From the NCBI GenBank assembly GCA_028715345.1, contig JAQUSB010000003.1, positions 2,004 to 66,003 of the forward strand: DNA of 64,000 bases, written 5' to 3'. The translations under genes were made by a program, and so were the position numbers. Source of the stretch: Candidatus Omnitrophota bacterium. Lineage in GTDB: Bacteria; Omnitrophota; Gorgyraeia; 2-01-FULL-45-10. The stretch's first letter is position 1, and the number at the start of each line of letters is the position of its first letter. This document shows positions 36,479-64,000 of the stretch, piece after piece. The notes below the pieces were generated by a model. It made no database searches, was not told where the DNA came from, and was given only the letters and a program-made list of their open reading frames with translations.

Positions 36479-36519
36479 TCCTTTCGCTTAAGGATTGCGG
36501 GTATTTAGGCAAGAAATCG

Positions 36520-37881: not shown

Positions 37882-38009
37882 AGATCAGCCTTTCATTTGG
37901 TTAGCATTTGATAGTTTTTAATAATATTAGCATATTATAATCTTTTGTCAAGCTCAAGTTGATAGCCGTATAAATCGGCGGATTTTTGTTTACCCGGATT
38001 GCGACAGCT

Positions 38010-39245: not shown

Positions 39246-39931
39246 GTCTTATATTTTAATATTACGGAATCTATGCCGGAGAGTATATCCTTTAAACGTT
39301 TGCCGTCTTCTGCAGGTATTGAACCCTTGTCGGCCAGCGCATTTATCCGCTCTTCCAGCGCCATAGAGTCGGTTTTGATCTTCTTGATGTCTTCATGCAG
39401 GCCCTCCACCATCTCTTCGAGAGCCGTCGCAGCGCTCCTCATCTCATCGCCGCGCCGTATCTTGAAATTGACTAAGAGGTCGCCGCGATGTATGGCCTCG
39501 GCGGATTTCTCTATCCTGTACATAGGCCCGGCTATCCTGTGTGATATGAATATGCCTGCGAAGAATATCAATACGGAGAGTATTATGACTTTCGGGATGA
39601 GCGATCTGTTCACGGAACGCAGAGCGTCTTTTAACGCGGCCTTATCCTGCGAGCTGAGCAGTTCGGCCTCGCGGAATATTTTTTCTAATCTGTAATCGCC
39701 CTTGCCGTATCTGACCTGTTCGTAATCGGTAATGCGGTTCACGTTCTCGAGGTTCTGCGAAACTTTAAAGTGGGAAAAGTTCTCGATGATCGAACCCCAC
39801 ATCCCCATGTAAAGCCCGAAACCCGTAACGAACATTACGACAAGAAGGGTGAGTACTGTCAGGACGGTGTATTTAAGCTGGAACCTTTTATTGACAAGGT
39901 AATTTTTTCTTTTATAGGTCGTTTCGGCCAT
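39242..39931 (-). CDS. Membrane protein with two transmembrane helices and a HAMP-like cytoplasmic helix, no output domain
   Basis: 229 aa. The second transmembrane helix is followed by HRIAGPMYRIEKSAEAIHRGDL, a HAMP-like amphipathic linker. Confidence 0.35.
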   Translation of the reverse strand: MAETTYKRKNYLVNKRFQLKYTVLTVLTLLVVMFVTGFGLYMGMWGSIIENFSHFKVSQNLENVNRITDYEQVRYGKGDYRLEKIFREAELLSSQDKAALKDALRSVNRSLIPKVIILSVLIFFAGIFISHRIAGPMYRIEKSAEAIHRGDLLVNFKIRRGDEMRSAATALEEMVEGLHEDIKKIKTDSMALEERINALADKGSIPAEDGKRLKDILSGIDSVILKYKT

Positions 39932-39976
39932 GCCGTAATTATATCATAAAAAATACCGACAGGCTAATCTAAAAAA

Positions 39977-45656: not shown

Positions 45657-45889
45657 CACTATCTCCTTAATTTGCTTTATATACAAAGATATTTAACTTT
45701 TCATTTATTTACAGAATGTGTTTAATTCTATCATATATAAGGAAGGTCGTCAACCTTCAAAAACTAACTATTTTATATTTTAATTTTACCGGCCTCCGCT
45801 TCGTAAACCGCTTGGCAGGATTTACGATAGCAGAGGCCGATCACTACCGGGGTGGCACCGCGGCAGTGTTTAAATATTATCGCGGGTCG
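45657..45889 (-). promoter_or_regulatory. AT-rich intergenic region: probable promoter and 5' UTR of the 1883-aa gene and 3' end of the giant gene
   Basis: 233 bp with no ORF. AT-rich 45660-45780. Weak inverted repeat cggcctc...gaggccg at 45789-45838. Confidence 0.3.
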
Positions 45890-48800
45890 TTACGCCGCGC
45901 TTGAGAGCAGTATCATAGCGCTTCTGTATATTTCGACTTCTTCCCCGATATTTTTAGGAACGACGGGCGGCAAATACGTGTATTTTTTCGCCGTCGAATC
46001 GTAATACAATCCGGGTATCTCGCTATCGAGAGCCATACTGTTCTCCGGAACTTTGTCCATTAAAGCGACCCTATAAGCGACCTTTTCCGAATTGACCGCC
46101 GCGAGCACACGCTTGCCGGCAACGGTCACTTCTTTCACTTCCAGCGTCTTCATATAGGTAGCAGCGCCGCTTAGTTCGCCCGAGGCCGATACTATGCTTA
46201 TATTGGACATGCTCAATCCTTGCGGCAGGCCTGCCGATATTTCACTTTCGATCTCTTCTATGTTCTTGGCACGGCCGTCAGCGTTATTCTCGACGAGCCT
46301 TATCTTTTTTATATTTTCCGCTGAGCACCCCGCGCCCGCCAGGAATGCTTCCGCACGCTCTTTTGTGGCAATGTCTTTGCCGTATAGGAAGGATACTTCG
46401 CCGCCGGCGGCTATGATCTGAGCGACTCCGTCGGCAAATGTCGGGTTATTCAGCGCGACCTTTTCGGTTATAACCACTCCCGCTCTCTTCCCGGCCGAAA
46501 CGGCGTCTTTAACGATAGATCTGTTGTTATAGAGAGAAGATTCGTTAAGTTTAAGTATGTGATCGGCGACCATTGGGCGCAACCCTTCTACGCGTTCTCT
46601 CATCGATGGAGTTTGCGTTATTCTGTCGAGCGCCATACCGAATATCTCGGCAGGCTCCATATCCTCTATATCGCCTATCAGGGCATTTACTATCCTTCTT
46701 ATATGGCCGCGTCCTTCGCTGTCTATGTCCTCCGCAACCAATGCCCCTTTGTAATTTGTAATAAGTATCTCGGCAAGCGCGGAGGCCAGGTCGGCATCGG
46801 TCATCGCGTCATCTACGAACAGGCAAACCTGCCTGCCGGTTCTCTTCCTTGAAATAAATTCGTCGGCCGTCTTCGCCGTTTCTACGGAACAATTTTCGCC
46901 GAGGACATCCTTTATGATCTTAACTCTTCCGGCGGCGCGGTACGAACTTACCTCGGGTATACCGACGACAAAGCCCTCCGGCTTATCGGTAAGACGCATC
47001 ACTTTCGCTATATGCTCTATAGCTCTGCCCAAAGCCCCCTGGACCTCTCCGGCATCGAGAGTCTGTGAGTATAATTCATAGAGGTAGCGATGCTTGTTTA
47101 CGGCTTCGCCTTCCCCGAGATCCGGCACTTTCTGCCCGAAAAATTCATTCTCTTCCGGCAGGAAACGCGTAAATTGCAAGTCTCGCGGATCGACGCTCGA
47201 TCTATCCGTCTCCGCCCTTATTATAACGTCGGCATCGCGTATCTCTTGCTCGTCGAGGAGCCTTACCGTTTTCAGGTTCGCGTAAAATTCCACCAGTTTG
47301 TCTGATAAAAACTGGTCGGTATTTAACTCCGCTACAATGTCACGGCGTAATCCGTTTAAACCCGGATCATAATAGTATATATTCCTGCCCAGAGCCGGCG
47401 CCGGCTTTTTATTTAATGTGATCAGTTCCGAACTTCCCGCCGAGACAACTTCAAAATAATCGTGCCAGCCGTTCCTGTCTATATAGTCCTGTATGGCAAA
47501 TTGCAGTAACGGGCTTCTGTATATATTGGCGTTGCATGTTACGACTATGCGGTATTTCCCGTGCCCTTTCTTCGGCGGAGGCAGGTTCGTTAAAGTCTTA
47601 AGCGGCCCGGTTTCGGTAGTAGTAATGGCCGGTTTTCTCTCATCCCCTTTTCCGCCGAGCCACACCGTCGCAACGGCACTTATACATAGGCCGGCCATCG
47701 CAAGGGCGGGACCATACGGCAGGTTTGCCAAAAACATCTTTATGGCAGGCCAATTATACAATACGATGCCGGCGGCTATGCCCGCAAGGATCAAGAAGGA
47801 CGCTTTCACCTCACCGCGCTCGTTCTGATGCAGTCCCGGGGCGATTTTCTTTTCTACCCTGTAGACCATCCGATAGCCGTCCAGCTCTCTGCGCAAACCC
47901 TTTGTTTTTCCGGTAACAACAAACTTGTTTCTAGCAACACCTTCCTTTTTAAAACCTATAGCTTCCAGCGCTTTCCAGGCGTCGACATCCAATTCATTTA
48001 CCGTCATCTCGATCCGGGAACGTCCTGCCATCCTCTCAAGCAGCCATTTCTTTATAAGGGCTTCCTCTACGCCGCAACCTTTGTAATCGGGATCGACTAT
48101 GATCCGCACTATCCCGATATATCCTTTATTCAGATCATAGACTATAGCGCCCACAACTTTACCGTCATAGAGCGCCACGCCTCCGAGACGGATCCTGACA
48201 TTCCTTGTGGCATCGGCATATGCCTGTTTATCCATCCGGTAATTACCGTCGACGGGCTCCGCGCGGTTCTCTATATCCTCTATCTCGGGATAATACTCCT
48301 GATTCAGGTTGCTAACTTCAAAATCTTTTTCAGGCTTCGCCGGAGACGCCGCAGGCTCGTATTCGCTTCCTGAGCGTATTTTCACTAAGTCCGCTTCCAA
48401 TTCCATCTTTCTTCTCACTTGTACCAAGTCCAATGTCATGACCATACGAGGACCGTCTGTTGGCGAATAGCGCGTGAAACCGTTGTTTAAAAGAAGGTCT
48501 TTTATTGCACGACTGCGTCCGTTTATTTCTACCTGCGCGTAAGTATGCCCTTCCGAAGCGAATCTTTCCTTAACAGTTCTCATGACCTTTGTGCAAGCGT
48601 AGCCGGAGCAATAGTTATACCTAAGGCAGAACGAGTCCATCACTATCTTGTGCTTCTTATATTCGTTATAGAGAATAAAGCCTACAGGTTTGTGGCCGTC
48701 CCTTATTATTAACCCGCGTTTTCCGCTTTGTAAATATATCTTGGCCCGTGTCGAATGGTCTATTTTATTAGCCCCCATTTCATCCACTGCTTCCTTGAAT

Positions 48801-51800
48801 ACCATATCTACGATACCTGCGCTGTTCTCATTCATATTTTCGATGGTAATCGGCGAATCGGCCGCATATTCCAGCGTAAGAGACGCGAAACCGAACCTTA
48901 TCGCGAATGTGTTGTAAATACCGTGGACAAAGAAATTGATGACGAGGGCGGGAACCACGCTTATAACAAGCCCGGCATAAGGATCAAATCCCCATGCCGC
49001 CGATAAGGCGCGGACGCATATGCTCATCGTGATCATCATGCCTGCCCAGATACCGATGATGCCGAGGCCTCTCGGAAGCTCTTCGCGCCATGTATTATTA
49101 AGGTGCGCGCGCAGGAACGTTATAGGCAACAAGGTCTTTATCAATTCATGCCGCGCCGCGAACCAGCCGATCTTGTATTCTTCTGTTATCCCTAACTCAT
49201 ATGCGCGCGCTCGTGTCGAAGGGAGAATAAGGGCCGTGCTTCCGGTCTGCGTGACCGAGGCGATCTTCTTAAGCGCGAATATCCTGGCATTGCGTATATC
49301 TTGATACGGTATAACCGATACCTTTTCCACCTCGATACCATTGTCGCTTAAGAAACCGGTAAAACGTTTTAGAGATTCTTCGTTCTTACCAAATACCTCT
49401 TCCTGCATGAACGGCCGGATGACCAATCTGCCGCCGGTCTTTACGGAATCGCATATTAACTTCCAGTCTTCCCTGCCGGCCGGTGAATCGAAATCGGATG
49501 AAACGCCGCATATGGAAAAGATAAGTTCAGGCTTTCTCGCATCAGGTAAAGCCGCTATTTCGGGCAGGTATTCATTGTAATATCTGGTAATGGTCGGGAC
49601 CCGTAATCCGGTCCCTTTTTCCTGTTGAAAATCTATATTTACTACTGCATCGCTTTGAGTTGCCGTTTTCAATAATTCCCTGACGCAAGGATACCCGCTT
49701 CCGCCTATCTCGAATATCTTCGCTCTCTTAAGCCGCTCCCTATCCGCGGGTTTTGAAAACGCCTCTGTAATAACGGCAAGCATCCACGCCCCTCTGTGGC
49801 TTTCGCGGGCCAGAGCTTCGGGTGTCGTATCGAGACCGAGTAACTCTGCGGCATATCTGATGCTTGCTTCGGATAACGCGCCCGGAAATGTTTCAACAGG
49901 TTTCTGCATTATTACGCGCGGCTTCGGTCCCGGTTTGGGCAAAGGTTTAGGCTCCGGCGGCGGGGGAGCCAGTAAAACTTTCGGCTGATGAAACATCAAG
50001 TCCGGAGGAGGCAGAGGGAAACGCGCGATCCAGTCATCCTCCGGGAATATTTTGAGTATCGCTTCCGCCTCCTGCTTCATACGATTGATCTCCGGGTCTG
50101 TCCATCCTCTGCCCTGCCTGAGACCTCCGGCAAATTCTTTAAGTTTTCTCCCCGCTTCATCGGCTTTACCCAATACAAGCGGCCTGAAAAATGTAAGAGC
50201 GCGCTCCAAACGCTTTGCCCCGTATATTTCCGTCTTACCGAAAATGGCCCCTATCCTGTTTATCTTCATCGGCGCATTGTAGTCTTCGGACATGCCGTAA
50301 CGCAATGCAAGAACTCTGCGCAGATCATGAGATCCGGGTATATACTCAAGTGCGGCGCGTATAATATTGATCTTGCGCTTGATTATAGGATGGCGCGCTA
50401 TCACCGAGCCCAGCCATCGCGTCTTGGTGGTCGAGGAAGGTTCCGCCTTTTTGACTTTTCCGAAATATTCCTCTTTTATGAGCCGCGGGTACTGGGCAGA
50501 ACCGGGAAATTTATTTGATTTAAGCGAATCGGCCGCTATAACGTCGAATTCTTCTTCCGTTATCAATTCGTCTTCAAGCATAAATCTTACTCTGTCGGCG
50601 GCCGCAAGCGGCAGCTTGCTTCCGCGGCCTTCACCCATATACACCCTGTCTATCTTTTCGCCATGCCGCCATGCGCGCCATGCTACGCGAATATCGTTAT
50701 AAGGATCGAAAGGGTTGCCGACTATTATGGATAACATGATAAGATTAAATATTCCCAATATCGTCAGGCAGGCTTTTGAAGTATGTTGCGGGTCCATTCC
50801 GGTATTTTGCAGCATCAGCAAAATTATTATGCCTATAATAGATATGCCGAGAGATAATTTTGTCATAAATATGCCCGGCGCTAAAGCCACGCGCACAGGA
50901 TGCTCGAAATAGGCGCCATCGGCAGAATCATAAAATCCTCCCGTGACCCTTCCGTCCTCTTCTACTATACCGACGGAGCCGCGATCTTTATCAGCTGAGG
51001 CGTGAAGCATTTCATGGGATTCCGCCAGGAACCGCGCGCACCGTTTACCGATAAGCGGGATCCGGTTTAATATCTTTATCGAAATAGCAAGGCTGTTAAT
51101 ATAATCCGCTAAAGAAACTTTTGGGTTTTTCTGTTTTTCGCGCCATATTTTAAATCGTATTTTCGTATCTTCGAGGTCGTTTTTAGAGAACATAAAAACG
51201 GCGTTGACCATAAAGGCGCTGATCAAAAGTATCGATCCTTGATGATAAAATAACGCGCCCGACAGGATCGCTACGGCGACCGCACTCATTGCGATACCGG
51301 GCCAACCTTTTGATCCCGGAATATGCACGCCGTATCCGTCAAATACGGGATCATTCGGATGCTGGATAAAATGTCCCAGCTCGTGCCAGAATACGGAGAG
51401 AAAATAGACTGCGGCTGTCATAATGAGGGTAAAGCCTAAGCCGCCGTTATCGATACCGGCGAAGTGGGCAATGACCGGCGGTACAAATCCCAGTAGCGCC
51501 GTAATAAGCTGCGGCATCGATATGGCGGATCTCGGCGGTAATTTCGATGAGGCAATATAGTCTTCATAAGGGACAAGCCTGCCCAGCAATTTATTGATCT
51601 TTTCTTCGGGAAGCCGGGTATTTTCGCGATATTTCCCGGCCTCTTCCTTTACTTTTCTGACCAATCCGCCGAGGTCGATAGTGCGGTCGAGCCTGTCCAA
51701 AAGCATGATATCGGATATGTCCATAAAGCCGTCTTTCGCGCAATCATATAGGCTCTCGGATCTGCCGCGGACCAGAAGGGCCGATATATTTTTGATTAAG

Positions 51801-54800
51801 GAGTCATCGGTAAGCCCAAGCCGATTAAGCTCTTTTTTCATCCAATCGGCATACTCTGTTTCGTCAGGATTCGACCTGCCTCTCATTAAACCGGTACCCG
51901 GGCGTATTCTGATAAATTTCCCGGATGCGCCTAAGATTTCCGAGATACCATTGTCGGCAGAGCCGGCCTCCGCTACGGAGCCTTCCGTTACCTTAAGCGT
52001 TTTCCCATCGCCTTCTTTTAGAAGGACCACAGGCCTGCCCATCGAAAGATACTGTTGCATATCGAGCAAAATATTCTTCACTTCGGCTGCACTCAAGAGA
52101 TGCCTCGTGCGGCGATCGATGTAGCTGTCGGGTTTCGGCATACCGTAAATATTCGGGAATTCTATTTTGATAACCATAGCCAGAAGCTGGCCGTTAACTT
52201 TGTTCGCCTCGGGATTGCCGTTATTAAGCAACGTGAACAGCCTGCTCCACCCGTGAATATTTATAAACGATCTCGTAAAATCCCTTAAGCCCGCAAGGCT
52301 CCATACAAAACGCTGCATCTCTTCCAATATGTAATTTTCTTCTGCGGTCAATATGCAAAATACTTTATTGCCGCCATTGGCAGGCCATACGATGGCAAGG
52401 TGGCCGCCGGCTCCCTGCAAGCCGCGCGCTACAACTTTACTATCCCTAAGGATGCTGACCGTATCGGACGACGGGATGCCGTGCTCCTCTTTAATGTCCC
52501 TGCAGAAATTATTCAGGTCATAGAGCCTGCGTGGCTTCGTATTTCTCAATGTGATAAGCTTATTCAGGGTTATTTCCGCGTTTTTCCGGTCGACCGGGGT
52601 CTTTGCGGCCACGGCGGGCCGGGAGGCAAATCCTTTCGCGTATAGCGCATCTTTATATCTTGTTTTCAGAAGTCTTGTGTGAACGTATCTGGTAATGGCC
52701 ATCCCCTGGTCCCTGGCATCATCGATAGCAAGCCATTTCGGCACGTTCTCGAAGAAATCGCCGGACTCATGCATAGCCTCTTTCGCTCCTGTATACTGCC
52801 GTAATATGTCTATCTTCTCCTGGGTAGTTTTACCGACAGCGCCCGGAGTCGTTACAAGCTCCTGAGTGATAAGCCAGAGGAACAGTGTCTGCTCTCCTAT
52901 TATCACCGACTCCTCATAAACTTCATCGGACTCGCTTCCTATATTATTATCGTGGCGTAATTCGTGGAGGAGACGTTCTATGCGCACGAAATTGGCGCCG
53001 TCTATAGCGTCCGCGTCGAACGATTGCTCGTTCACGATATCGTCGAGCCTGAAGAAAAATTCGTTAAATACGATGGTTGCTTCGTTATTTTCGAAATCGT
53101 AATAACGCGCGGAGTCTATCATGAGATCGGGCGCTACGGCAAATTTCAGCTTAGCCAATTCCAGGTTGGAGGACAGATTTATCCCGGTTACATGCGTATC
53201 CGCCTGAATAGGCTTGCTCTGGACTGCCTCCTTCAATATCTTATGAAATTCCGGGCTAACAGACGCTATATAGCACATGGTCGAGAATAACATGTTGAGC
53301 TTGGCAGGCAATGGGCCATCCGAAGGAAAGATGACCGCAAGCGCTTTTTCTATTTCCGAGGGGCTTTTTTCGTCAAGGTTATCGATGATTTCCTTCAGGC
53401 TTTCTAATTGCGAATTATCCAGTTCCGCTATGGTTCGGCACTGTAATCGTTCTATCGGCGGCAAGGCCATCGCTTTACCATAAGCGCCTTTACCGGAAGG
53501 CCCATCGGCGCGTGGGACGCTAAGTTCCGGCGCTTCGACGGCCTTTAATGCCTCAGCCGCGCTCTTCCTGAGCTCAGGCGGCAGCTTTTCATTACCTGAT
53601 ATTTTCTTTAAATATGGGATGTTTTCTTCCGATCCCCCTATCCCCATCTGCTCGATGATACGCTCCAGGGCGGTTGTTGCATTATAACGTTCTCCGTTTC
53701 TTGTATAAGACGGTTTCCTGTTATAATCATTCATATCAGTCGCAATTTTTATAAAGATATCTATGAAAAGCCGCGCATCATCCATCATCGGCACCGTCCC
53801 CATAACTACATCAGCTTCCCGCACCTGTTCCGGACCGACTTTATTAAGCATTGCCATAAAGGCGCTTACCGCGTTCGGGCCGCCTATACCGGCGAGTTTA
53901 CGGATAGCGTCGACATATTTGCCGTAATCGTCACTTTTTAATTGTTCTATAAGGGCGTTTTCTTCCGCTTTCATATCGGCAAGGGCTTTTTCTGCGGCGG
54001 CTCGCATTGCCGGCGGGCAAGCGCTCTCCCCCGCTATAGCCTTAAGGTGCTTTTCGACTTTTCTGTTATTGATACCGCAAAGCGCTTCAACGGCCCGCGC
54101 TTGCGCCAATGCAGAGGCAATGTCCTCAATAATGGCCGGAGATTCTACATCGTATTCCCCGTATTTTCTTTTAGTGATAGACTCGGCTGTCTTCCCTAGC
54201 GCCTCGGCGGCGGCCGCACGCACTTCGGTATCATTGTCTTTTAATGCCTCTTTCAATATTTTCACGGCGTTTTTCAGGACATCATCCTGGTCCGGACGCA
54301 CTTGTATGGGAAGCCCGAAATCACCGCCATACACTTCACCGATAGCCCTGGCGGATTCGGCGCGGACTTCCGCATAATTATTTTTCATTTTTCCCGTAAG
54401 GGCGGAAATAGCTTTCTCATCTGCATTCTGTTTTAAGGCTTTTATCAGCTCCTTCTGAACGACCGGGTCTGCTTCTTTCTCCAGCGCCTCGATAAGCTCC
54501 TTCTCCGCAAGATGGCCGAATGCGGATAATCCCGCCGCGGCCTTAATACGTTTCGCGGGATCTTCATCATTAAGCATAGTTTTGAAAGCTTTCAGGTCAC
54601 GGTCATGTATCTGCCGTTGAATAGATATCCCTTTGATGGATTCGCCGAAATTGTCCTTGCCCGTAATTTTTTGAGCTATCCGCCCGTATCTATTAAGCTC
54701 CATCCTGCCTTTAACCGCGTCCAATTGTTCCTCTAGGGATCTTTCCGGCATCACATTATCTTTTTTATGCTTCGCGAAATCGATAAAGGCGCGGTAGCCG

Positions 54801-57800: not shown

Positions 57801-60800
57801 GGGATATCGGTAAGGCGCACCATAGCGCCGAATTTAACATCCTTATGCTCCTGCAGGAATTTAGCAAGATACAGATGTTCTATTTCGACAAAGCTCGCAT
57901 CAGAAGCTTTCCATATTTTCGCGTCGCTCTGCTTTTCTTCTGTTATTGTCCTGACATTAACGCCTGCACCTACATGCACTCTCCGGCCTATCTTATCGAA
58001 TATTTTCCTCAGCCTTTCAACATCTACGCTATTCTGCGGCGCCGGAACAATGCTATTCTCCCTATCCAATATCCGGTCATATACGACCATATCGCCGATC
58101 TTCATAGAGCCGCCATTTTTCGGCCCTTTGAGCCCTCCGGCCAGCCCAACGAATAAAACATCTTTAATGGAAAGTATGTTAACCAGGTAATCTATTGCGC
58201 CTACTATCTGATCACCATACGCGTCATCCAAATCCATAATTAAGATCCTTTGGGCATCGGGTAAAATTACTACGCAATGATCGCAGCCTTCGCGCTCAAA
58301 ATCTTCGAAACTCGCGCCATTGCCGGCGCGTTTGACCAGAGCCTTAGCAAATTTCTTGGGGCTGAATACGAATATCGCCCGGGAAATTCCGCGCGCGTCA
58401 CGGCCGAGCGTCTCGTCGTACAATTTTCTGTAGTCTGTTTTAAATTCAAGGATAGACAGAGATGTGTACGGAATGTTCTTATATTTAAGCATGGCGATAT
58501 ATTCGGCCATCCGCGTTCCTCCATGCAGACCTGCAAGGACGTATAGAATTTCCCCCGTCTTTGTTATTGCGCGATAGAAATGCCCCCTTACCTCTCCATA
58601 CGATCCCGGCTTGGCATCCGTCAGGTTACGCTCATTTTTAGTGCCGTGGCTGGCCGCATAGACTTCTTTTACTTCGGTAAATTCACCCGAATGAAGACGT
58701 TCGGCTAACATAGTTTCTGACTGTTCATTCAGACCGATATGTATCTCTATGCCTGCGCCTTTCTTTAAATTTTCTATTAAACCTGCCGGCATATAATCGT
58801 CAACATACGGCTCTATTTCCATAAGGCTTTCTTCGGCATTTGCGGGAGTTTTCAGAGAATCGTAAAGAGCTTTAATCTGCGATTTACTAAAAACTGAAGA
58901 TACTACGGCAGGCTGAACTGTATAAGCCTTAGGCAAATGCATGGGAACGGCATTAGGGATAGAATTTTCTCCCCAGCTTATCTGCCCGCTATTGTCAATG
59001 ACCTTCCTGTCTCCTAAAAGCGTCAATATGGAAAATATCTGAAGCGAATGGCCGAACATCACAATCTTCTTACCTATATATCTTGGGTCGCTGTTCAATT
59101 TTTCCAAAAATGCTTTTGAGCGTATCAACAGATCTATGACACTCTCACCGCCGCCGGGCCTAACTGCCGCATCGAGATATTCATGATACCTTTCGCGCTC
59201 AGCCTGCTGCTCAGAAGTAAGCATATCGAGCGTTTTATTCTGTAATGCGCCGCCGTACTTCTCGTTTATAAGAGGATCCCGTATAACAGTAAGGTCTTTA
59301 CCGGTCCTATCTCTCACAAGACTTGTGAATGCCGCTGCTGTATCTTTTGTACGCGTAAGAGTGCTTGTTAATATGATCACGTTATCGTTTACTATATCGT
59401 CCTCTAATTGCTTGAACAAACTTTCGGCGCCTAGCGCGGCCTGCCTCTTGCCTTTTGGGGTAAGTTGGTTTATATCTTCATCGGCAGCGCCGCCGATTAT
59501 CCCTTCGATAAGATTTGCTTCAGTCTGGCCGTGCCTTACAGCGATTATGTCTATATTATTTTCAACGACGGCGCCTTCACCGGCAAATCCGATCCTCCCG
59601 GTAGAGCTGTCTAAAAATATCTTGTTGTCTAACTCAGCGATGGCCCCGTCTTCTTTAGCCTTTTCCTGCCCCGGGCCGTCGAGCTTAAACCTCTCGTCCA
59701 TCATGTCGCCGAGGCCTTCGGGATCCGCGACGAATCTCATCTTTCCTTCGAGTGACGGCGGGAACTGCTGGACCGTATTATTTCTGACAAATACAGCTGT
59801 CGCGCCTTCGTTGGCAAGTTCCAACATATCAAAATCGTTTCCGCTGTCGCCCAAAACGGTTATATTCTTTGTCTCGATGCCAAACCTTGCGGCATGAACC
59901 TTTACCCTCTCTCCTTTGCCTGAAAGAACGATATCTATGTACTGGTTATTATTGTTTGTGAGACGGAATCCCATGGGAGATAATTTTTCATTTAGTCTGG
60001 AAAATAGCACAGGCGTATGTTCAGCAAGGACATTGCCCATATTTATGGTTATGACCGACAGCTTGTGATCGACCTCTATCTTCGACGGCCACTGTATATC
60101 TTTTCCTATATATTTTGAGAGGCCCAACTCTCCCATTACTGCGTCGATCTTTTCAACTGCAGCCGCCCTCTGATGTTCGTCAAGCCTTAGCGAATTATTT
60201 TCTTCGGCATGCAGGTTGCCGTCTGCATCCACCCACCCCACATCGCCGCCAAGTTCACCCAATAGATAGAATTGTCCCGGATATTTTATATGCTTCAGGA
60301 ATTCATATTTTCGCAATTTCTCATGTATCTTCGGAAGTCTCTGGCCTGTCACTATCGCCCATCGCCCTCCCCTATCGAGCGTCTCCGCTATCCGGCGCTG
60401 CAAAGATGCGGGGATAGGCTGGCCGCTTAAATGCAGAGTCCCGTCAAAGTCACTTGCAAACAAATGTTCTGATAGATCGCCAAACGGTTTCAAGTTAGCT
60501 ATCGCCTTTTCGCCGACGCCGTCTTTCCGTAGATCCCGGATTGTCGGGTGGCCCTTATACTCATTAAACCAATCTTCCGAATATATTGCGTCATCAAGCA
60601 ATACCCATACATTCCCGATACCGGACCATCTGAGCCCGGAATGCTCTGCTATATCGGCAATCTCCCTGGCTGACGCCGAAGTTATGATCTTCGTTATGGG
60701 CATCGTCCGCACAGCGCGTTCGCAGGCGGCGGCAAACAGAGCCTTGCCTATACCTTTGTGTTCAAGGTCTTCCCTTACGGACACGTATTCTGCTTCGGCC

Positions 60801-63800
60801 CCGATGCCGTACTTCTTTATATAGCAGAATCCGGCTATCTCGCCTTTATCGTCTCTGTATACGGCAATTATGTCCCTTTGCACATCCGGATTTTTGACAG
60901 GTATATGCGTATCGTCATATTTGCTCTCCGTGATATAGCCCTTTTCCACAAGACGGTGTAATAATCCGCCGTTTATAGCCGCGCCGTCTTGTAAGCTATA
61001 TTTGCTTCCGTCGAGAAATTCTACTTTGTCATAAATATCTCCGTTCACCTCGAACGTTGCGCCGAAGACCTTCACTTCTTTTTTCGGCGTTCCTTCTTTT
61101 GGAAATTCGCCTAACGTCCCATATCCTACCTTTACCCTAAAGTACCCCAATAAGGGCACAAGTGCGGTATTTGCAAATGAATGTGCGGCGACATTGGCTG
61201 CTATGGCAAGTAATGGATTTGATATGTAGTAAGCTATGACCAAGCCTGATATGGCTACAAGAGTAGGTATGAATAGATGGTAAAATGATCCGGAAGCAGG
61301 AACTTCCGCTATCTTATTTCTCAAAATCCGTACAGCGCGCGGCGGGCTTAAGCTTTTGTTATTCAAAACATACGTCCCGGAGACAAAAAGGCTTGCGCCA
61401 TTGGCATAAGCTCCGGCTATATTCGTATCGTTTATCCCGCCCTGCACCATTATCTCCTTGCCGGGCGCCTTCCGGCCGATCTCGATGATCTTGGCAAACT
61501 GGCTTACATCGGCTTCGGCCCCGGTAGCGCCTGTCTCTATAGACGAGACTACGATCATATCCGCCTCTTTAAGGATCGCGGTCGGTATAGAATCGACCGG
61601 TTCGTCCTTCTCCAGGACTATGCCGGCCTTAATATTCAGCGATTTTATATACCTGATAGCATCCAAAAGACGCGCCTTGTCCTTGAAACTGTCAAATTGT
61701 ATGTCAATGCTCCTCACGCACCCCGTATCGGCAAACCCTTTAAGGTATTCCTTTGTCGGCTCCCAACACAGAAGATGAACATCGAAAGTCTTTTCGAAAC
61801 CTGCGTCCTTCATCGCGTTGATCAATCCGGGAGTGAATTGCCCCGTATTATCCGGATATGCCTTATTACTATTTTCGCGGCCTGTGTTGCTGAAATATCC
61901 GTTATCCCGCACGTCGTAATGAATACCGTCAGCGCCCGCAGCCTGTATCTCCAGGGCTTTCCCGATCAATTCTTCGTCTTCCATTTTGCGCAATACAGAG
62001 AGAGGAACGAAGATATGCGGATTCTTTCTATTCAATAGATGCGCTATTGTAAATATCACCCCGAATACGCCCAGAAGTGAGAACGATATGCTTGAATTTA
62101 TAAGCGGTGAGAACTCGAAGAATGACTGTATTATGGCGGCGATACCATAAGGTATGCCTACCCTTAATAGAAGGTCTTCTACTATAGGAGCTGTTACCTC
62201 GGGGGTATATCCTATGCCTGTATACGGCTTTACCTTCGCATCCCACCAGTCGCCTATGGGACGGATGGTGGCGGGGCCTGCAGGGGCAGGCGCTACAGCT
62301 TGCTGTAACACGGCCTTGCTTTTCAGATCTTGAGCAAAATACGCAAGGCCTGCTAAAAACCCATATTTCAAAGTATTTACATCGTTGTCTACAACTCTGA
62401 CTAACGGCACCTCTTGTTCTGCGATCCCGAGCGCGGTATTTGCCGACATAGCCGTTATCTTTCCCGCTTCTCCCGAAAGAACTCCTCCTGACAATACGAC
62501 ATTTTCGATATTATAATAATTTTCGATTGCCCGTTTCAGGGCGGCAATACATTTCCCGACATTTACAAAAACCACTTCCGCATCATTACGCTGTTCTGCA
62601 TTGCCCGATCCAAGCCAGCCTGTCAAAATGCGCGGCACATCGTCGGTTTCGGCAAATTTGTATTTATTATAAAGCCCTAGCCAACGGGCATTATTCGAAA
62701 TGCCGTACCATGATATATACGCTCCTGCCCAACCGTTAACTCCTGTCATGCTATGAACGGGCGCGCCGCCACTCATATCTATCACGGCTTTGGAAAATTC
62801 ATTGATACCATCCGCGTAATTACCGTTTTCGTCTATAAATCCGGAGGAAAGAGTGTTCCCGAATTTAAGTACGAGCGTATTTTTGTACCCAAACCTTCTC
62901 CCTATGCCATGGGCTTCCATGTTTCCGTCGTTTTGGGTAAAAACCGGCTTGCCCGGGTAAGCCGCCGATATAAGTCGAGGCAGAGAAGCGACGTCTTTAT
63001 CTGATATCGGAATAAATTTTTCTTCCTGACCGGCCGGTTTTCCTAATACGTTATCTCCCCTTGCAATAATACCCAGACCTACGCTTACTCCTATATAGTC
63101 GAGCACTTCATCCGGAATGCCGTTCGTACGCATGCTTACTCTGGCGGCTTCTATGGCCCTTTGTGCCAGATATGCCATATCGTTCGGGTCGACACCTTCC
63201 GGACACGTCCTAATACTTACCGGGGCGGTCAAATACCGGTAGGTTCCTTTCCCGTCTACTTCCGCAACGCCTATTTTCGTAACCATTTTCCCGAAGTTAA
63301 CACCCAATATCCTGACATCGGCTTTTTTGCCGGCGGGTAACGCTGTCCGTATAGCGCCGAGGACAGCGGGGGCCTTTACAATTTCTTTTTCCGTTTTATC
63401 GGAAATAGTAAATCCCGCCGTACCAAAACTTTTCCCGGCCATTTCGCTCGTACGCAGAGGCTTCGCGTCTTTGTCAAAGTGTGAGTTAAAAGATTCTCTC
63501 AAAGTATTTGTAAAACCGGGAATGGTCGAAGCTATTTCAAGGCCTGTCGTTCCCCGTGTTTGTATACGATTGTATATCTCGGTGCAGGCGTATCGCATGA
63601 TATTTTCGAACGCGCCATCTTCCAGGTTTTTGGGAATACTCAAAGCAAAATCCATGGAAGCACCGGGCGTGCCTGTGAACTCAAAAGAAACTGTTTCGAA
63701 GCTCCCCGGATATTTGACTGCATCCTGCCTGAAGCGCTCAAAGACCTCCTGCCATTCATACAAAAATCTCTTATCGGTTAAAGACGACAGGGAAGCGTTA

Positions 63801-64000
63801 TGCACCTTCGATACAACCCCTTTACGGTCGAGAGACCACTCGCAAACTTTACCGTGTTTATTCAGAAGCTCCACAAGCTGTTCGCGGCGGCCTTTTTTAA
63901 CAACAAAAATACTGTATCCGCCGCCGCCTGTTCCTATCGAACTGGCGCCTTCGATGATCTCCCCGGCCTCAGCAATAACGTCATCCAAATAACTGCTGTC
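45890..64000 (-). CDS. Giant multi-domain membrane-associated megaprotein, partial (5' end beyond window); more than 6032 aa in window
   Basis: A single uninterrupted minus-strand frame of about 18.1 kb. Recognisable enzyme-domain motifs are interspersed with hydrophobic helices. See the domain features below. Confidence 0.6.
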   Translation of the reverse strand, partial: DSSYLDDVIAEAGEIIEGASSIGTGGGGYSIFVVKKGRREQLVELLNKHGKVCEWSLDRKGVVSKVHNASLSSLTDKRFLYEWQEVFERFRQDAVKYPGSFETVSFEFTGTPGASMDFALSIPKNLEDGAFENIMRYACTEIYNRIQTRGTTGLEIASTIPGFTNTLRESFNSHFDKDAKPLRTSEMAGKSFGTAGFTISDKTEKEIVKAPAVLGAIRTALPAGKKADVRILGVNFGKMVTKIGVAEVDGKGTYRYLTAPVSIRTCPEGVDPNDMAYLAQRAIEAARVSMRTNGIPDEVLDYIGVSVGLGIIARGDNVLGKPAGQEEKFIPISDKDVASLPRLISAAYPGKPVFTQNDGNMEAHGIGRRFGYKNTLVLKFGNTLSSGFIDENGNYADGINEFSKAVIDMSGGAPVHSMTGVNGWAGAYISWYGISNNARWLGLYNKYKFAETDDVPRILTGWLGSGNAEQRNDAEVVFVNVGKCIAALKRAIENYYNIENVVLSGGVLSGEAGKITAMSANTALGIAEQEVPLVRVVDNDVNTLKYGFLAGLAYFAQDLKSKAVLQQAVAPAPAGPATIRPIGDWWDAKVKPYTGIGYTPEVTAPIVEDLLLRVGIPYGIAAIIQSFFEFSPLINSSISFSLLGVFGVIFTIAHLLNRKNPHIFVPLSVLRKMEDEELIGKALEIQAAGADGIHYDVRDNGYFSNTGRENSNKAYPDNTGQFTPGLINAMKDAGFEKTFDVHLLCWEPTKEYLKGFADTGCVRSIDIQFDSFKDKARLLDAIRYIKSLNIKAGIVLEKDEPVDSIPTAILKEADMIVVSSIETGATGAEADVSQFAKIIEIGRKAPGKEIMVQGGINDTNIAGAYANGASLFVSGTYVLNNKSLSPPRAVRILRNKIAEVPASGSFYHLFIPTLVAISGLVIAYYISNPLLAIAANVAAHSFANTALVPLLGYFRVKVGYGTLGEFPKEGTPKKEVKVFGATFEVNGDIYDKVEFLDGSKYSLQDGAAINGGLLHRLVEKGYITESKYDDTHIPVKNPDVQRDIIAVYRDDKGEIAGFCYIKKYGIGAEAEYVSVREDLEHKGIGKALFAAACERAVRTMPITKIITSASAREIADIAEHSGLRWSGIGNVWVLLDDAIYSEDWFNEYKGHPTIRDLRKDGVGEKAIANLKPFGDLSEHLFASDFDGTLHLSGQPIPASLQRRIAETLDRGGRWAIVTGQRLPKIHEKLRKYEFLKHIKYPGQFYLLGELGGDVGWVDADGNLHAEENNSLRLDEHQRAAAVEKIDAVMGELGLSKYIGKDIQWPSKIEVDHKLSVITINMGNVLAEHTPVLFSRLNEKLSPMGFRLTNNNNQYIDIVLSGKGERVKVHAARFGIETKNITVLGDSGNDFDMLELANEGATAVFVRNNTVQQFPPSLEGKMRFVADPEGLGDMMDERFKLDGPGQEKAKEDGAIAELDNKIFLDSSTGRIGFAGEGAVVENNIDIIAVRHGQTEANLIEGIIGGAADEDINQLTPKGKRQAALGAESLFKQLEDDIVNDNVIILTSTLTRTKDTAAAFTSLVRDRTGKDLTVIRDPLINEKYGGALQNKTLDMLTSEQQAERERYHEYLDAAVRPGGGESVIDLLIRSKAFLEKLNSDPRYIGKKIVMFGHSLQIFSILTLLGDRKVIDNSGQISWGENSIPNAVPMHLPKAYTVQPAVVSSVFSKSQIKALYDSLKTPANAEESLMEIEPYVDDYMPAGLIENLKKGAGIEIHIGLNEQSETMLAERLHSGEFTEVKEVYAASHGTKNERNLTDAKPGSYGEVRGHFYRAITKTGEILYVLAGLHGGTRMAEYIAMLKYKNIPYTSLSILEFKTDYRKLYDETLGRDARGISRAIFVFSPKKFAKALVKRAGNGASFEDFEREGCDHCVVILPDAQRILIMDLDDAYGDQIVGAIDYLVNILSIKDVLFVGLAGGLKGPKNGGSMKIGDMVVYDRILDRENSIVPAPQNSVDVERLRKIFDKIGRRVHVGAGVNVRTITEEKQSDAKIWKASDASFVEIEHLYLAKFLQEHKDVKFGAMVRLTDIPGEKKSGKSLGSVVPSSEKNDEWRAGMAEYLLPELPVAPATLRPIGDLWDKYIKPKTGIGYTPQVTAPIVEDLLLRVGIPYGIAAVVESYFNFTPVVNSSILFASLVVFGAVFTLLHILNERAPPGSEERKPASYHLIIPALVTVTGLTIAYFVSNPIDSILFSIVAHSLINTFLVPYLNERGIDVGYGTLSGREPKHGGSKKVKVFGATFNVKSDIYDKIEFLDGTNHRKGDEEAINKIFHRLVEDGILNEDEYDKIEIPVAQINAKHNVVAVYRDKGGRIVGFCHLGRTGIGAKVKFVAVRKDFEHKGIGKALFAAVCERAAQTMPLTKIITIPEANGTYEIVSNAGFEWSGIKNVWILLDDEVYPEGWFEKNKGRDVLLNLSYDGIGEKAATKRTPSKTSSDAGPVRRAVDWLKRNPLILSIAMIAAASAAQALAYLGVLNGGAANAISMAAMASVWPIPVKGMEGATLDWYRDIPGRREYEARVALRALLEGDADEKIEALMDLHGIINNAPAGLLADFYNYIAKATPAIELLLECAASPNTHLRDLSQGMLYYLMKNKDPIMCGAIAKARVQVEGRYETAISIFFRGLADKDERSRLRSLSMISGLILLGGSEQSEILAELRIKIKGVDKTFIDILEDMISKDDDGDIIKSYDAVAIIVKKGNDALLDMLADSTIPACVMSEKFRRSFVNANKAFAESGGDIGPVVKLCIYIAGLEEPFDIARRESAFGIIGEFARSKNKDIIKEIVSDIDALASFIGRPDETGQFAVALFKDLVGTKEPELLKAIRRPEVCAALKMKREDPSESVRKDIWVILNAIVEGPESPSAPQEGSAMIPALRKWLGDDKARIYQAAIEQSLFWAVNIGLLFVPGLRNLWSVVITWSLFFIAHYVKAKNMPNAPPWYRIAAITAMNAAFITIPTADILYFSNTDITYLLTTPSIIATLYGPLFAVATIIHQFANLAYLDKEAGKPREGRRFFSYSLKALIGLVTITAIVLGGYRAFIDFAKHKKDNVMPERSLEEQLDAVKGRMELNRYGRIAQKITGKDNFGESIKGISIQRQIHDRDLKAFKTMLNDEDPAKRIKAAAGLSAFGHLAEKELIEALEKEADPVVQKELIKALKQNADEKAISALTGKMKNNYAEVRAESARAIGEVYGGDFGLPIQVRPDQDDVLKNAVKILKEALKDNDTEVRAAAAEALGKTAESITKRKYGEYDVESPAIIEDIASALAQARAVEALCGINNRKVEKHLKAIAGESACPPAMRAAAEKALADMKAEENALIEQLKSDDYGKYVDAIRKLAGIGGPNAVSAFMAMLNKVGPEQVREADVVMGTVPMMDDARLFIDIFIKIATDMNDYNRKPSYTRNGERYNATTALERIIEQMGIGGSEENIPYLKKISGNEKLPPELRKSAAEALKAVEAPELSVPRADGPSGKGAYGKAMALPPIERLQCRTIAELDNSQLESLKEIIDNLDEKSPSEIEKALAVIFPSDGPLPAKLNMLFSTMCYIASVSPEFHKILKEAVQSKPIQADTHVTGINLSSNLELAKLKFAVAPDLMIDSARYYDFENNEATIVFNEFFFRLDDIVNEQSFDADAIDGANFVRIERLLHELRHDNNIGSESDEVYEESVIIGEQTLFLWLITQELVTTPGAVGKTTQEKIDILRQYTGAKEAMHESGDFFENVPKWLAIDDARDQGMAITRYVHTRLLKTRYKDALYAKGFASRPAVAAKTPVDRKNAEITLNKLITLRNTKPRRLYDLNNFCRDIKEEHGIPSSDTVSILRDSKVVARGLQGAGGHLAIVWPANGGNKVFCILTAEENYILEEMQRFVWSLAGLRDFTRSFINIHGWSRLFTLLNNGNPEANKVNGQLLAMVIKIEFPNIYGMPKPDSYIDRRTRHLLSAAEVKNILLDMQQYLSMGRPVVLLKEGDGKTLKVTEGSVAEAGSADNGISEILGASGKFIRIRPGTGLMRGRSNPDETEYADWMKKELNRLGLTDDSLIKNISALLVRGRSESLYDCAKDGFMDISDIMLLDRLDRTIDLGGLVRKVKEEAGKYRENTRLPEEKINKLLGRLVPYEDYIASSKLPPRSAISMPQLITALLGFVPPVIAHFAGIDNGGLGFTLIMTAAVYFLSVFWHELGHFIQHPNDPVFDGYGVHIPGSKGWPGIAMSAVAVAILSGALFYHQGSILLISAFMVNAVFMFSKNDLEDTKIRFKIWREKQKNPKVSLADYINSLAISIKILNRIPLIGKRCARFLAESHEMLHASADKDRGSVGIVEEDGRVTGGFYDSADGAYFEHPVRVALAPGIFMTKLSLGISIIGIIILLMLQNTGMDPQHTSKACLTILGIFNLIMLSIIVGNPFDPYNDIRVAWRAWRHGEKIDRVYMGEGRGSKLPLAAADRVRFMLEDELITEEEFDVIAADSLKSNKFPGSAQYPRLIKEEYFGKVKKAEPSSTTKTRWLGSVIARHPIIKRKINIIRAALEYIPGSHDLRRVLALRYGMSEDYNAPMKINRIGAIFGKTEIYGAKRLERALTFFRPLVLGKADEAGRKLKEFAGGLRQGRGWTDPEINRMKQEAEAILKIFPEDDWIARFPLPPPDLMFHQPKVLLAPPPPEPKPLPKPGPKPRVIMQKPVETFPGALSEASIRYAAELLGLDTTPEALARESHRGAWMLAVITEAFSKPADRERLKRAKIFEIGGSGYPCVRELLKTATQSDAVVNIDFQQEKGTGLRVPTITRYYNEYLPEIAALPDARKPELIFSICGVSSDFDSPAGREDWKLICDSVKTGGRLVIRPFMQEEVFGKNEESLKRFTGFLSDNGIEVEKVSVIPYQDIRNARIFALKKIASVTQTGSTALILPSTRARAYELGITEEYKIGWFAARHELIKTLLPITFLRAHLNNTWREELPRGLGIIGIWAGMMITMSICVRALSAAWGFDPYAGLVISVVPALVINFFVHGIYNTFAIRFGFASLTLEYAADSPITIENMNENSAGIVDMVFKEAVDEMGANKIDHSTRAKIYLQSGKRGLIIRDGHKPVGFILYNEYKKHKIVMDSFCLRYNYCSGYACTKVMRTVKERFASEGHTYAQVEINGRSRAIKDLLLNNGFTRYSPTDGPRMVMTLDLVQVRRKMELEADLVKIRSGSEYEPAASPAKPEKDFEVSNLNQEYYPEIEDIENRAEPVDGNYRMDKQAYADATRNVRIRLGGVALYDGKVVGAIVYDLNKGYIGIVRIIVDPDYKGCGVEEALIKKWLLERMAGRSRIEMTVNELDVDAWKALEAIGFKKEGVARNKFVVTGKTKGLRRELDGYRMVYRVEKKIAPGLHQNERGEVKASFLILAGIAAGIVLYNWPAIKMFLANLPYGPALAMAGLCISAVATVWLGGKGDERKPAITTTETGPLKTLTNLPPPKKGHGKYRIVVTCNANIYRSPLLQFAIQDYIDRNGWHDYFEVVSAGSSELITLNKKPAPALGRNIYYYDPGLNGLRRDIVAELNTDQFLSDKLVEFYANLKTVRLLDEQEIRDADVIIRAETDRSSVDPRDLQFTRFLPEENEFFGQKVPDLGEGEAVNKHRYLYELYSQTLDAGEVQGALGRAIEHIAKVMRLTDKPEGFVVGIPEVSSYRAAGRVKIIKDVLGENCSVETAKTADEFISRKRTGRQVCLFVDDAMTDADLASALAEILITNYKGALVAEDIDSEGRGHIRRIVNALIGDIEDMEPAEIFGMALDRITQTPSMRERVEGLRPMVADHILKLNESSLYNNRSIVKDAVSAGKRAGVVITEKVALNNPTFADGVAQIIAAGGEVSFLYGKDIATKERAEAFLAGAGCSAENIKKIRLVENNADGRAKNIEEIESEISAGLPQGLSMSNISIVSASGELSGAATYMKTLEVKEVTVAGKRVLAAVNSEKVAYRVALMDKVPENSMALDSEIPGLYYDSTAKKYTYLPPVVPKNIGEEVEIYRSAMILLSSAA
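47150..47560 (-). other. Domain of giant protein: low-molecular-weight protein tyrosine phosphatase / ArsC-like
   Basis: P-loop VVTCNANIYRS (CX5R-S; DNA 47521-47565). Confidence 0.55.
49250..49750 (-). other. Domain of giant protein: class I SAM-dependent methyltransferase-like
   Basis: Motif I IFEIGGSGYP (DNA 49691-49720). Preceded by the proline-rich linker PPPPEPKPLPKPGPKP (about 49910-49970). Confidence 0.45.
50990..51395 (-). other. Domain of giant protein: membrane-embedded HExxH motifs (site-2-protease/M50-like)
   Basis: VFWHELGHFIQHP (DNA 51343-51395) inside a hydrophobic helix. Second HExxH, AESHEMLHA, about 100 aa downstream (DNA 51006-51035). Confidence 0.4.
53300..54700 (-). other. 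Domain of giant protein: HEAT/ARM-like alpha-helical repeat region (PBS-lyase HEAT-like)
   Basis: Repeats of the type DPAKRIKAAAGLSAFGH, DNDTEVRAAAAEALGK (DNA 54193-54240), AEVRAESARAIGEV. Confidence 0.5.
56850..57100 (-). other. Domain of giant protein: GNAT acetyltransferase copy 2 (copy 1 at about 60700-61000; further GNAT-like domains at about 48560-48700 and 48050-48250)
   Basis: Shared motif FEHKGIGKALFAA (GNAT motif A) in both duplicated modules. Further GNAT-like segments contain YKGCGVEEALI. Confidence 0.55.
58950..59550 (-). other. Domain of giant protein: histidine phosphatase (phosphoglycerate mutase-like) fold
   Basis: RHG motif IIAVRHGQTEANL (DNA 59511-59550). Downstream GHSLQI supplies a second catalytic His. 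Confidence 0.5.
59750..60470 (-). other. Domain of giant protein: HAD-superfamily phosphatase (Cof/sucrose-phosphatase-like)
   Basis: Motif I SDFDGTL (DNA 60426-60460). Motif III/IV GDSGNDFDMLE (DNA 59821-59860). Confidence 0.6.
61400..61950 (-). other. Domain of giant protein: ribulose-phosphate 3-epimerase / hexulose-phosphate-type TIM barrel-like
   Basis: FDVHLLCWEP (DNA 61741-61775), then MVQGGINDTN...LFVSGT, resembling the RPE family DxHLM and VDGG motifs. Confidence 0.45.
62300..63988 (-). other. Domain of giant protein: GHMP-kinase C-terminal-like and ROK/glucokinase-like sugar kinase region
   Basis: GTGGGGYSIFVV (DNA about 63920-63950). ROK-like NDGNMEAHG (DNA 62897-62930) and LSGGVLSGEAG. 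Confidence 0.45.

Follow-up and report, generated by a model that had tools for sequence, protein, structure and literature searches.

A giant open reading frame on the minus strand

We analysed a 64,000-nucleotide stretch of a Candidatus Omnitrophota genome (contig JAQUSB010000003.1 of assembly GCA_028715345.1; hereafter the window), which carries on its minus strand the C-terminal 6,036 codons of a single giant open reading frame (ORF; 45893..64000). The frame closes with TAA at 45890-45892, its N-terminus is off the window, and the 'TTG start' listed at 63988 is merely the first start-like codon past the window edge; residues are numbered here from the first visible codon. All long ORFs of the window lie on this strand. 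An initial annotation made from the sequence had described one uninterrupted frame of more than 6000 amino acids (aa), cut by the window edge and of a kind found in Omnitrophota-type lineages, and had listed its domains in an order that proves to be the N-to-C order on the minus strand, which it left unstated. We found that this description holds. Given the base composition of the strand, the chance that 6,036 codons run free of stops is about 1e-146, and the GC content at codon positions 1/2/3 (0.54/0.39/0.51) is coding-like, stays even along the ORF and gives no hint of a chimeric join. The products of neighbouring genes match exactly the Candidatus Omnitrophota metagenome-assembled genome (MAG) proteins MDD5427835, MDD5427848, MDD5427849 and MDD5427852, and the named relatives of the giant are Omnitrophota as well. 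The giant is a real open frame and belongs to a Candidatus Omnitrophota genome.

An assembly chimera, or a string of decayed genes read as a single frame, would be the most mundane explanation. The source is a short-read MAG contig, and the independent Logan contigs that we recovered, one of which is 100% identical to window 35980-39958, span neighbouring genes only and not the giant. Such an artefact is nevertheless extremely improbable, given the stop-free run and the uniform codon-position GC. Catalytic motifs, as judged from the sequence, are intact in the HAD, histidine phosphatase, GNAT and LMW-PTP-like modules described below; the internal duplicates of the giant are not assembly repeats, because they have diverged to 53-61% identity; and equally long open frames occur in relatives from other Omnitrophota assemblies.

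Enzyme modules along the chain

Domain labels were judged by curated Pfam cut-offs, and NCBIfam was also scanned. Hidden Markov model (HMM) matches, together with the hydrophobic helices described below, bear out the earlier picture of many small-molecule enzyme modules fused on one chain with transmembrane (TM) helices between them, and domains above curated cut-offs cover only about one-fifth of the residues. The first such module is an RPE-like TIM barrel (PF00834; 61367..61954, residues 683-878), which scores 63.9 bits against a cut-off of 21.1 and is matched by RPEs of the PDB at E 7.6e-16. It is followed by a beta region with a GNAT acetyltransferase (60485..61003, residues 1000-1172; Pfam GNAT at 1044-1099; motif HKGIGKAL), a HAD-IIB (Cof-type) phosphatase (59801..60463, residues ~1180-1400; DFDGT at 1184 and GDSGND at 1384), a histidine phosphatase of branch 1 (His_Phos_1; 59015..59548, residues 1485-1662; 66.8 bits; RHG at 1489 and the second His at 1651) and a segment of the PNP/UDP phosphorylase superfamily (PNP_UDP_1; 57791..58174, residues 1943-2070; motif GLAGG), the latter a partial profile match of 27.1 bits against a cut-off of 25.1. 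A second beta region with a GNAT acetyltransferase (56606..57115, residues 2296-2465; Pfam GNAT at ~2330-2417) is a 53% identical duplicate of residues 1000-1172. All of these identities had been proposed in the initial annotation, as had a Pro-rich linker, which we located at 49919..50017 (residues 4662-4694).

Other modules that had been named score below the cut-offs or are recognised by motifs. At the window edge, residues 1-55 (63836..64000) resemble the C-terminal end of a GHMP-type kinase (GTGGGG, motif III) at sub-threshold level, with E 0.015 in Pfam and E 0.007 for the mevalonate kinase C-terminus in a two-sequence profile, and are conserved in another Omnitrophota MAG (L002, see below). 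The sugar-kinase-like character that had been assigned to the beginning of the visible chain thus stands, at that level, for the GHMP-type end and is not confirmed for the ROK-like part. The latter, an ASKHA/ROK-like block at residues 56-561 (62318..63835) whose family is unconfirmed, gave no Pfam or NCBIfam match to the ROK family (PF00480), only noise in a PDB single-sequence search, and an hhalign probability of 1.6% against the window's own true ROK protein; its NDGN-type motif (at 357) and GG motifs were seen by eye only. Two further GNAT-like domains had been noticed towards the C-terminus, one of which is above the Pfam cut-off (47951..48277, residues 5242-5350), while the other, a possible fourth GNAT at 48401..48853 (residues ~5050-5200), has the motifs but no Pfam HMM match. 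The suggested methyltransferase could not be confirmed: residues 4700-4910 (49271..49903) may be a class-I S-adenosylmethionine (SAM) methyltransferase by the motif EIGGSG at 4762, and gave no Pfam HMM match. Likewise, the LMW-PTP/ArsC-like P-loop is present as CX5RS (CNANIYRS at 5489), and its domain (47081..47548, residues 5485-5640) is sub-threshold, with 16 bits against the PF01451 cut-off of 23.2 (E 0.014, profile positions 1-43 only) and E 0.61 against PDB entry 2cwd. The C-terminal region (45893..47080, residues 5641-6036) has no detectable relatives in Pfam, the PDB or the set of relatives described below. PDB single-sequence searches with the PNP-like, methyltransferase/GNAT and C-terminal segments returned only noise. 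A likeness seen by eye between the C-terminal tail of the giant and those of its relatives (...P...Y...A-COOH) was rejected, as tail HMMs did no better than 2,000 shuffles.

In RPEs, the Asp of the DGG motif serves as a metal ligand and acid/base catalyst. The RPE-like barrel of the giant keeps H-x-D (H-Y-D at 694-696) and DVHL. Since Gln stands in place of the DGG Asp (VQGG at 852) and the PGFGGQ loop has degenerated to ETGATGAE, we conclude that the barrel is not a canonical epimerase. Its 70 bits also fall far under the NCBIfam equivalog cut-off of 212.

A duplicated unit and a TIM barrel inserted in a membrane domain

Self-comparison of the giant revealed a duplicated unit that consists of a four-TM module, a beta region, a GNAT domain and a tail, with 61% identity between residues 573-683 and 2102-2208 and 53% identity between residues 901-1172 and 2198-2465. 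The four-TM module resembles CPBP/Rce1 intramembrane proteases (PF02517) in its four-helix core, whose helices 1, 2 and 4 bear E-x-x-x-R, FxxxH and HxxxN, respectively, in either copy. Copy 2 is contiguous (57233..57643, residues 2120-2256) and reaches 21.5 bits, just under the Pfam cut-off of 22.4; a profile built from the CPBP-like modules of relatives alone matches it at E 3e-16. Copy 1 is found as an N-terminal half with TM1-2 (62024..62230, residues 591-659) and a C-terminal half with TM3-4 (61115..61318, residues 895-962), both of which match the relatives' profile at the corresponding profile positions. The three motifs lie on TM helices in each copy (VEDLLLR at 607 and 2136; FTIAH at 650 and FTLLH at 2179; AHSFAN at 939 and AHSLIN at 2233), and the second Glu of the CPBP EExxxR motif is an Asp in both.

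The two halves abut in copy 2, whereas in copy 1 a gap of 217 residues, occupied exactly by the RPE barrel, sets them apart. The TIM barrel has therefore been inserted in an intramembrane protease-like domain, in the loop that joins its helices 2 and 3 (window 61115-62230, residues 591-962). Unlike known CPBP/Rce1 proteins, these modules sit inside a megaprotein, with a sub-cut-off score and with one copy split by a 217-aa barrel. Just ahead of each copy lies a stretch with PAT-I/L-RPIGD-W/L-WD (at about 577-588 and about 2106-2117), which has 71% identity from one copy to the other and is seen again at the C-terminus, a truncated one, of relative P0002. Further CPBP-like modules that we saw by eye at ~2920-3035 and ~4930-5030 received no support from the CPBP profile.

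HEAT repeats and modules with HExxH motifs

The middle of the giant begins with a helical region that has a weak HEAT_2 match (55241..56383, residues 2540-2920), followed at 53534..54631 (residues 3124-3489) by HEAT repeats that had been proposed before and that Pfam HEAT matches above its cut-off at ~3140-3275 with 88 bits. Beyond them lie four modules, termed here M1 to M4, in a region where Pfam is largely silent. The initial annotation had reported two HExxH motifs and called them M50-like; we found three (at 3679, 4206 and 4329), and the M50 fold is unsupported. Pfam M50 gave no match at E up to 1 in the giant, the sequence NPFDPYND is only loosely like NxxPxxxxDG, and a fold search gave no support for M3 as an M50-like module.

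Module M1 (52601..53533, residues 3490-3800) carries the first HExxH, and an alignment of relatives defines the invariant signature ER-x-x-HE-x-x-H-x-N...EE. Its AlphaFold2 model has a predicted template-modelling score of 0.79 and suggests a divergent zincin-like fold; Foldseek gave no significant match to the model, and a profile search of PDB sequences gave none. Directly N-terminal of M1 (53470-53533, residues ~3490-3520), a K-G-A-Y...LP(P)L motif (at about 3503-3517) is kept in all relatives aligned there. It sits in a disordered part of the model, with a predicted local distance difference test score below 50, and is a candidate docking or cleavage site.

In module M2 (51161..51556, residues 4149-4280), HELGH closes the second of four TM helices. 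Module M3 (50621..51094, residues 4303-4460) comprises a helix that bears HEMLH-x-x-AD, then a beta hairpin and a pair of long TM helices, along with an (S/N)D that is conserved; its HExxH thus lies in a helix ahead of the two TM helices, and its two His and two Asp residues are invariant. Module M4 (50033..50620, residues 4461-4656; 4454-4656 by local mapping) combines a SHOCT-like motif with a following R-x-x-L-x-L-RYGL segment that resembles the helix-turn-helix of sigma-70 region 4. M4 is single in the giant and forms three tandem repeats in relatives P0003 and P0005. Weak Pfam matches to sigma-70 region 4 in 4 of 10 members (best E 0.0075), with no PDB match, leave such a DNA-binding-like module within a membrane megaprotein as a lead only.

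Relatives of the giant are very long mosaics

For residues 3501-4700, the Pfam-dark region, HMMER was run exhaustively over 1.84 billion representative proteins and matched no more than 20, each with a length of 1,468-5,935 aa; three of these are named, and all three are from Candidatus Omnitrophota. M1 is present in 12 of the 20, and local mapping detected each of M1-M4 only in these very long proteins, where their order and copy number vary. The other enzymes of the relatives include RPE, methyltransferases, GNAT, metallophosphatase, SecA_DEAD and AA_kinase. Because module order, copy number and partner enzymes differ between relatives, these proteins are mosaics of shuffled modules. Word-indexed homologue searches with residues 3480-4700, 2100-2470 and 3488-3830 found no match, and neither did two metagenome-contig scans with the GHMP/ASKHA-like block.

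The same pattern is seen at the visible N-terminal end of the giant. Residues 4-561 have their closest relative, with 46% identity, in part of a frame in the second Omnitrophota MAG, L002, and the homology breaks off precisely at the linker that leads into the first TM module. The L002 frame shows no stop in any of the 21,680 bases that were retrieved, a run of 7,226 codons of which no fewer than 3,333 come before the homologous block. It encodes B12-binding plus radical SAM and DegT domains upstream of that block, and APS kinase, PHP and CofD domains downstream. Two near-identical PHP-type module repeats (...CWKEPENVHVKY...LGVPAYH-T/A-HTNLEDDG...) were also noted in L002 1-21680, as were recurrent DGG tripeptides at apparent module boundaries of its frame. 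As to the N-termini of the relatives, P0003-P0005, P0007, P0008, P0011-P0015 and P0018 share a signal-anchor motif (...IAFI-x-QD-x-x-WA-x-PD...), and P0006, P0017, P0019 and P0020 share a different N-terminal domain with the 1,883-aa ORF of the window (...IHIQDAHCNYAAQ...).

Membrane topology of the giant

Hydropathy counts 24-26 hydrophobic helices in the giant, about one per 240 aa, in agreement with the many that had been noticed between the domains. Most of them occur in even-numbered bundles, namely the two four-TM CPBP-like modules, the HExxH-bearing TM modules and hairpins. Other membrane segments are a single TM helix or TM hairpin at 56408..56545 (residues 2486-2531), a cluster of five hydrophobic helices at 54776..55240 (residues 2921-3075) for which a likeness to CPBP is unsupported, and two TM pairs at 48911..49069 (residues 4978-5030) and 47651..47815 (residues 5396-5450).

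We counted Lys and Arg residues (K+R) near the helix ends over four combinations of two uncertain helices. Model 1 has 24 TM helices and places only residues 2510-2920 outside, so that the helical region with the weak HEAT_2 match would be periplasmic (K+R 49 inside, 12 outside). Model 2 has 26 TM helices and places residues 3076-4162 outside, a span that includes the HEAT repeats, M1 and an unassigned stretch (K+R 51 inside, 14 outside); the segment at residues 2486-2531 decides between the two helical-repeat regions. Both best models put all cofactor-dependent modules on the K/R-rich face and one helical-repeat region outside. Because the TM bundles are even-numbered, the enzyme modules would stay on one face. 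By this charge count, which takes up the question of sidedness raised by the initial annotation, the kinase end and the RPE-like, HAD, histidine phosphatase, PNP-like, GNAT, methyltransferase-like and PTP-like modules are predicted to face the cytoplasm.

Genomic neighbourhood

Directly downstream of the giant lies a 1,883-aa ORF (40035..45686, minus strand) whose product, a protein that has a signal anchor, is another large mosaic. Its residues 43-554, an N-terminal domain of ~480 aa, are homologous to the N-terminal domains of four relatives of 3.5-5.9 thousand aa (E 1e-62 to 1e-77). It has no Pfam match at E 1e-3; by eye, it shows HEMAH and motifs of the phosphoglucose-isomerase/SIS type (SKSGSTDET, GGRWTG). 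As this ORF is a large mosaic beside the giant, two large mosaic genes stand here in tandem. Tandem large genes are also found beside relatives P0003 and P0001, the latter being followed by a gene for 2,003 aa. In MAG GCA_042566865.1 (L003 17729-27653), the gene for P0003 (5,684 aa, with SecA_DEAD, AA_kinase and methyltransferase) is followed 76 bp on by one with a 12,561-aa product.

Farther downstream, on the same strand, a cluster of the type used for beta-1,2-glucan utilisation spans 10596-39931. It includes two genes of the GH94 phosphorylase-like kind, one for 790 aa and the other for an unusual length of 2,043 aa, together with three 'Glycoamylase' genes (PF10091, GH144-like) and with CBM11-like and CBM30-like domains. 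A solute-binding protein, its two ABC permeases and a ROK protein are encoded there too, as are a response regulator and its histidine kinase; genes for an M48 peptidase and an agmatinase also lie within these limits. The response regulator (32111-32782, minus strand) is identical to a protein filed under 'Dehalococcoidales bacterium' in MAG GCA_028706655.1 (L006, a 2.6-kb contig), and this small contig is probably mis-binned. GC content at codon position 3 is lower in the giant (0.47-0.57) and its 1,883-aa neighbour (0.56) than in the downstream glycan-utilisation genes (0.59-0.67; 19578-36478), while at positions 1 and 2 the giant and those genes are alike. No type II secretion system or pilus genes were seen within the window, the upstream side of the giant lying beyond it, and the window has no tRNA or Rfam features.

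Comparison with known giants and multi-enzyme systems

The giant belongs to an already described class of Omnitrophota membrane-anchored multi-enzyme mosaics, with many distinct enzyme Pfam families on one chain, none of them dominating, and numerous TM helices. The initial annotation was right that giant ORFs are known from Omnitrophota, and two preprints describe this class. It was wrong in taking a fusion of metabolic enzymes to be unusual among them, since West-Roberts et al. 2023 (bioRxiv 10.1101/2023.11.21.568195) and Nielsen & Lui 2026 (bioRxiv 10.64898/2026.06.07.730766) already report multi-enzyme giants. The former describe 'Archaeovorin' Omnitrophota giants with HEAT, GNAT, HAD, radical SAM, methyltransferases, glycolytic and sugar-phosphate enzymes and many TM regions, with carbohydrate import genes downstream, with a divergent SecA_DEAD in most full-length giants, and with autoproteolysis proposed from C39/S8 domains. 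The latter define a class 1 of 'multi-enzyme metabolic clusters', naming GNAT, HAD, methyltransferase, ROK and radical SAM; by their account 94% of long proteins are membrane-targeted, and one architecture, called 'TM-only', pairs a membrane anchor with domains in the cytoplasm.

Our giant resembles class 1 in its Omnitrophota host, in its many Pfam families without a dominant one (GNAT, HAD, methyltransferase, ROK and HEAT being named there), in its spread TM helices with a membrane anchor and predicted cytoplasmic domains, in the glycoside hydrolase genes on its downstream side, and in having relatives unique in sequence. However, that catalogue of 916 proteins starts from 10,000 aa, whereas 6,036 aa are visible here, with at most about 17 kb more assembled on the 81,377-bp source contig, and the named relatives have 1.5-5.9 thousand aa; a clear sugar-importer cluster lies downstream here, unlike the weak signal in their set; and RPE, CPBP/CAAX and HExxH modules are absent from their main text. 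With the Archaeovorin giants it shares numerous TM regions, HEAT, GNAT, HAD, methyltransferase-type and sugar-phosphate enzymes, downstream carbohydrate import genes and suspected proteolytic processing. Those giants have at least 30,000 aa, with glycosyltransferases and SecA_DEAD prominent, neither of which is in the visible 6,036 aa here; a SecA_DEAD domain, which relative P0003 has, could sit in the off-window N-terminal part. Their domains were predicted mostly extracellular, whereas the enzymes here are predicted to be cytoplasmic. As neither main text mentions CPBP/CAAX, M50 or HExxH modules, the module-level details appear to be new. AROM, CAD and viral polyproteins likewise have several enzymes per reading frame at fixed stoichiometry, and viral polyproteins carry their own proteases. 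In AROM and CAD the order is conserved and the enzymes act one after another in a single pathway, whereas the order of modules in the giant is not conserved.

Possible roles of the giant

Given the findings above, we think that the giant is probably a co-translated, membrane-tethered toolbox, that is, a giant Omnitrophota protein with a mosaic of enzymes facing the cytoplasm. Some 24-26 helices would thread the chain through the inner membrane, and the even-numbered TM bundles would keep independently folding enzyme modules at the cytoplasmic face, with one helical (HEAT-type) region exposed outside. Enzymes of sugar-phosphate, nucleoside-phosphate and acyl/methyl-transfer chemistry would in this way be held at fixed stoichiometry beside the membrane, a possible benefit of tethering; a sugar-import cluster is encoded immediately downstream of the giant. 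Several points weigh against this reading. The topology was derived from our own count of hydropathy and positive-inside charges rather than with a trained predictor, its two models tie, and the starting side was assumed from charge bias, the N-terminal part being off-window. The ASKHA-like block is without HMM support, so that some modules may be non-catalytic, and the RPE-like barrel, which is without one catalytic Asp, may be another. About 60% of the residues have no assignment. Finally, West-Roberts et al. 2023 (bioRxiv 10.1101/2023.11.21.568195) predicted the domains of their giants to be mostly extracellular, with HEAT only outside, although those authors themselves doubted some of the localisations.

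A different and attractive idea about what the chain becomes, and one that is compatible with a cytoplasm-facing mosaic, is that of a self-processing membrane polyprotein in which the two CPBP-like modules, the zincin-like M1 and the TM modules M2 and M3 with their HExxH motifs cut the chain into membrane-anchored enzymes. At least five protease-like modules keep putative catalytic residues, including the CPBP motifs in both copies and the invariant His and Asp residues of M3; the disordered K-G-A-Y...LP(P)L just before M1 is conserved in all relatives aligned there; and C39/S8 domains have already led others to propose that Omnitrophota giants undergo autoproteolysis (West-Roberts et al. 2023). 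We nevertheless regard self-processing as rather unlikely, as its cleavage sites are candidates from sequence only. CPBP proteins, moreover, often play non-proteolytic roles. A more specific form, in which M1-M3 and both CPBP-like modules would make up a built-in processing system that cuts at K-G-A-Y...LPPL before M1 and at PAT-x-R-P-I-G-D-W-W-D before each CPBP copy, is unlikely.

The initial annotation had favoured an ordered, membrane-anchored assembly line, in which one phosphosugar or other small molecule would be passed from kinase to epimerase, phosphatase and acetyl/methyl transfer. In chemical terms, the enzymes make a coherent set for work on sugar phosphates and nucleosides, the L002 relative adds a DegT aminotransferase, radical SAM and APS kinase, which are typical of sugar tailoring, and the downstream genes form a cluster of the type that takes up and degrades beta-1,2-glucan. 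We found no carrier (PP-binding, PCP/ACP), swinging-arm, tethering or tunnel elements in the visible 6,036 aa, and a kinase with three kinds of phosphatase makes no obvious linear pathway. Because the modules are shuffled, with order and content differing in every relative, because one is duplicated and another inserted into a membrane domain, and because carrier domains are missing and the RPE-like barrel is without a catalytic residue, we consider an ordered line distinctly unlikely. The enzymes might instead be extracellular and act on cell-envelope polymers of prey, as part of a surface-exposed machine for predation or host interaction like that proposed for Archaeovorin-type giants. Such a role would fit the mostly extracellular localisation predicted by West-Roberts et al. 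2023, with HEAT only outside, and the glycoside hydrolases, phosphorylases and sugar importer encoded next to this giant, as reported for other giants. On the other hand, the positive-inside count strongly favours enzymes inside (49 vs 12), and the even-numbered TM bundles hold the enzyme modules on one face. Kinases, GNATs, methyltransferases and PNP need ATP, acetyl-CoA, SAM and phosphate, all of which are cytoplasmic. Weighed together, these points make a predatory machine very unlikely.

Omnitrophota giants pose a recognised problem, which concerns whether each works intact or in pieces, where their enzymes sit relative to the membrane, and what they do. On sidedness, the charge bias of this giant argues that cofactor-dependent enzymes face the cytoplasm, contrary to the earlier prediction of mostly extracellular domains. 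Regarding its fate as a chain, M1-M4 were found only in very long proteins, and three of them have conserved metal-binding motifs, which makes them testable candidates for self-processing. If they do act in this way, the giant would be a bacterial self-processing membrane polyprotein, and M1-M3 would be new metallopeptidase families so far found only in large Omnitrophota-type proteins. With about 6 thousand aa visible and relatives of 1.5-6 thousand aa, these proteins are more tractable for expression and proteomics than giants of more than 30 thousand aa. Altogether, the giant does not establish a new category of protein; rather, the insertion of an RPE barrel in a CPBP-like domain and the segmental duplication show how such genes grow.

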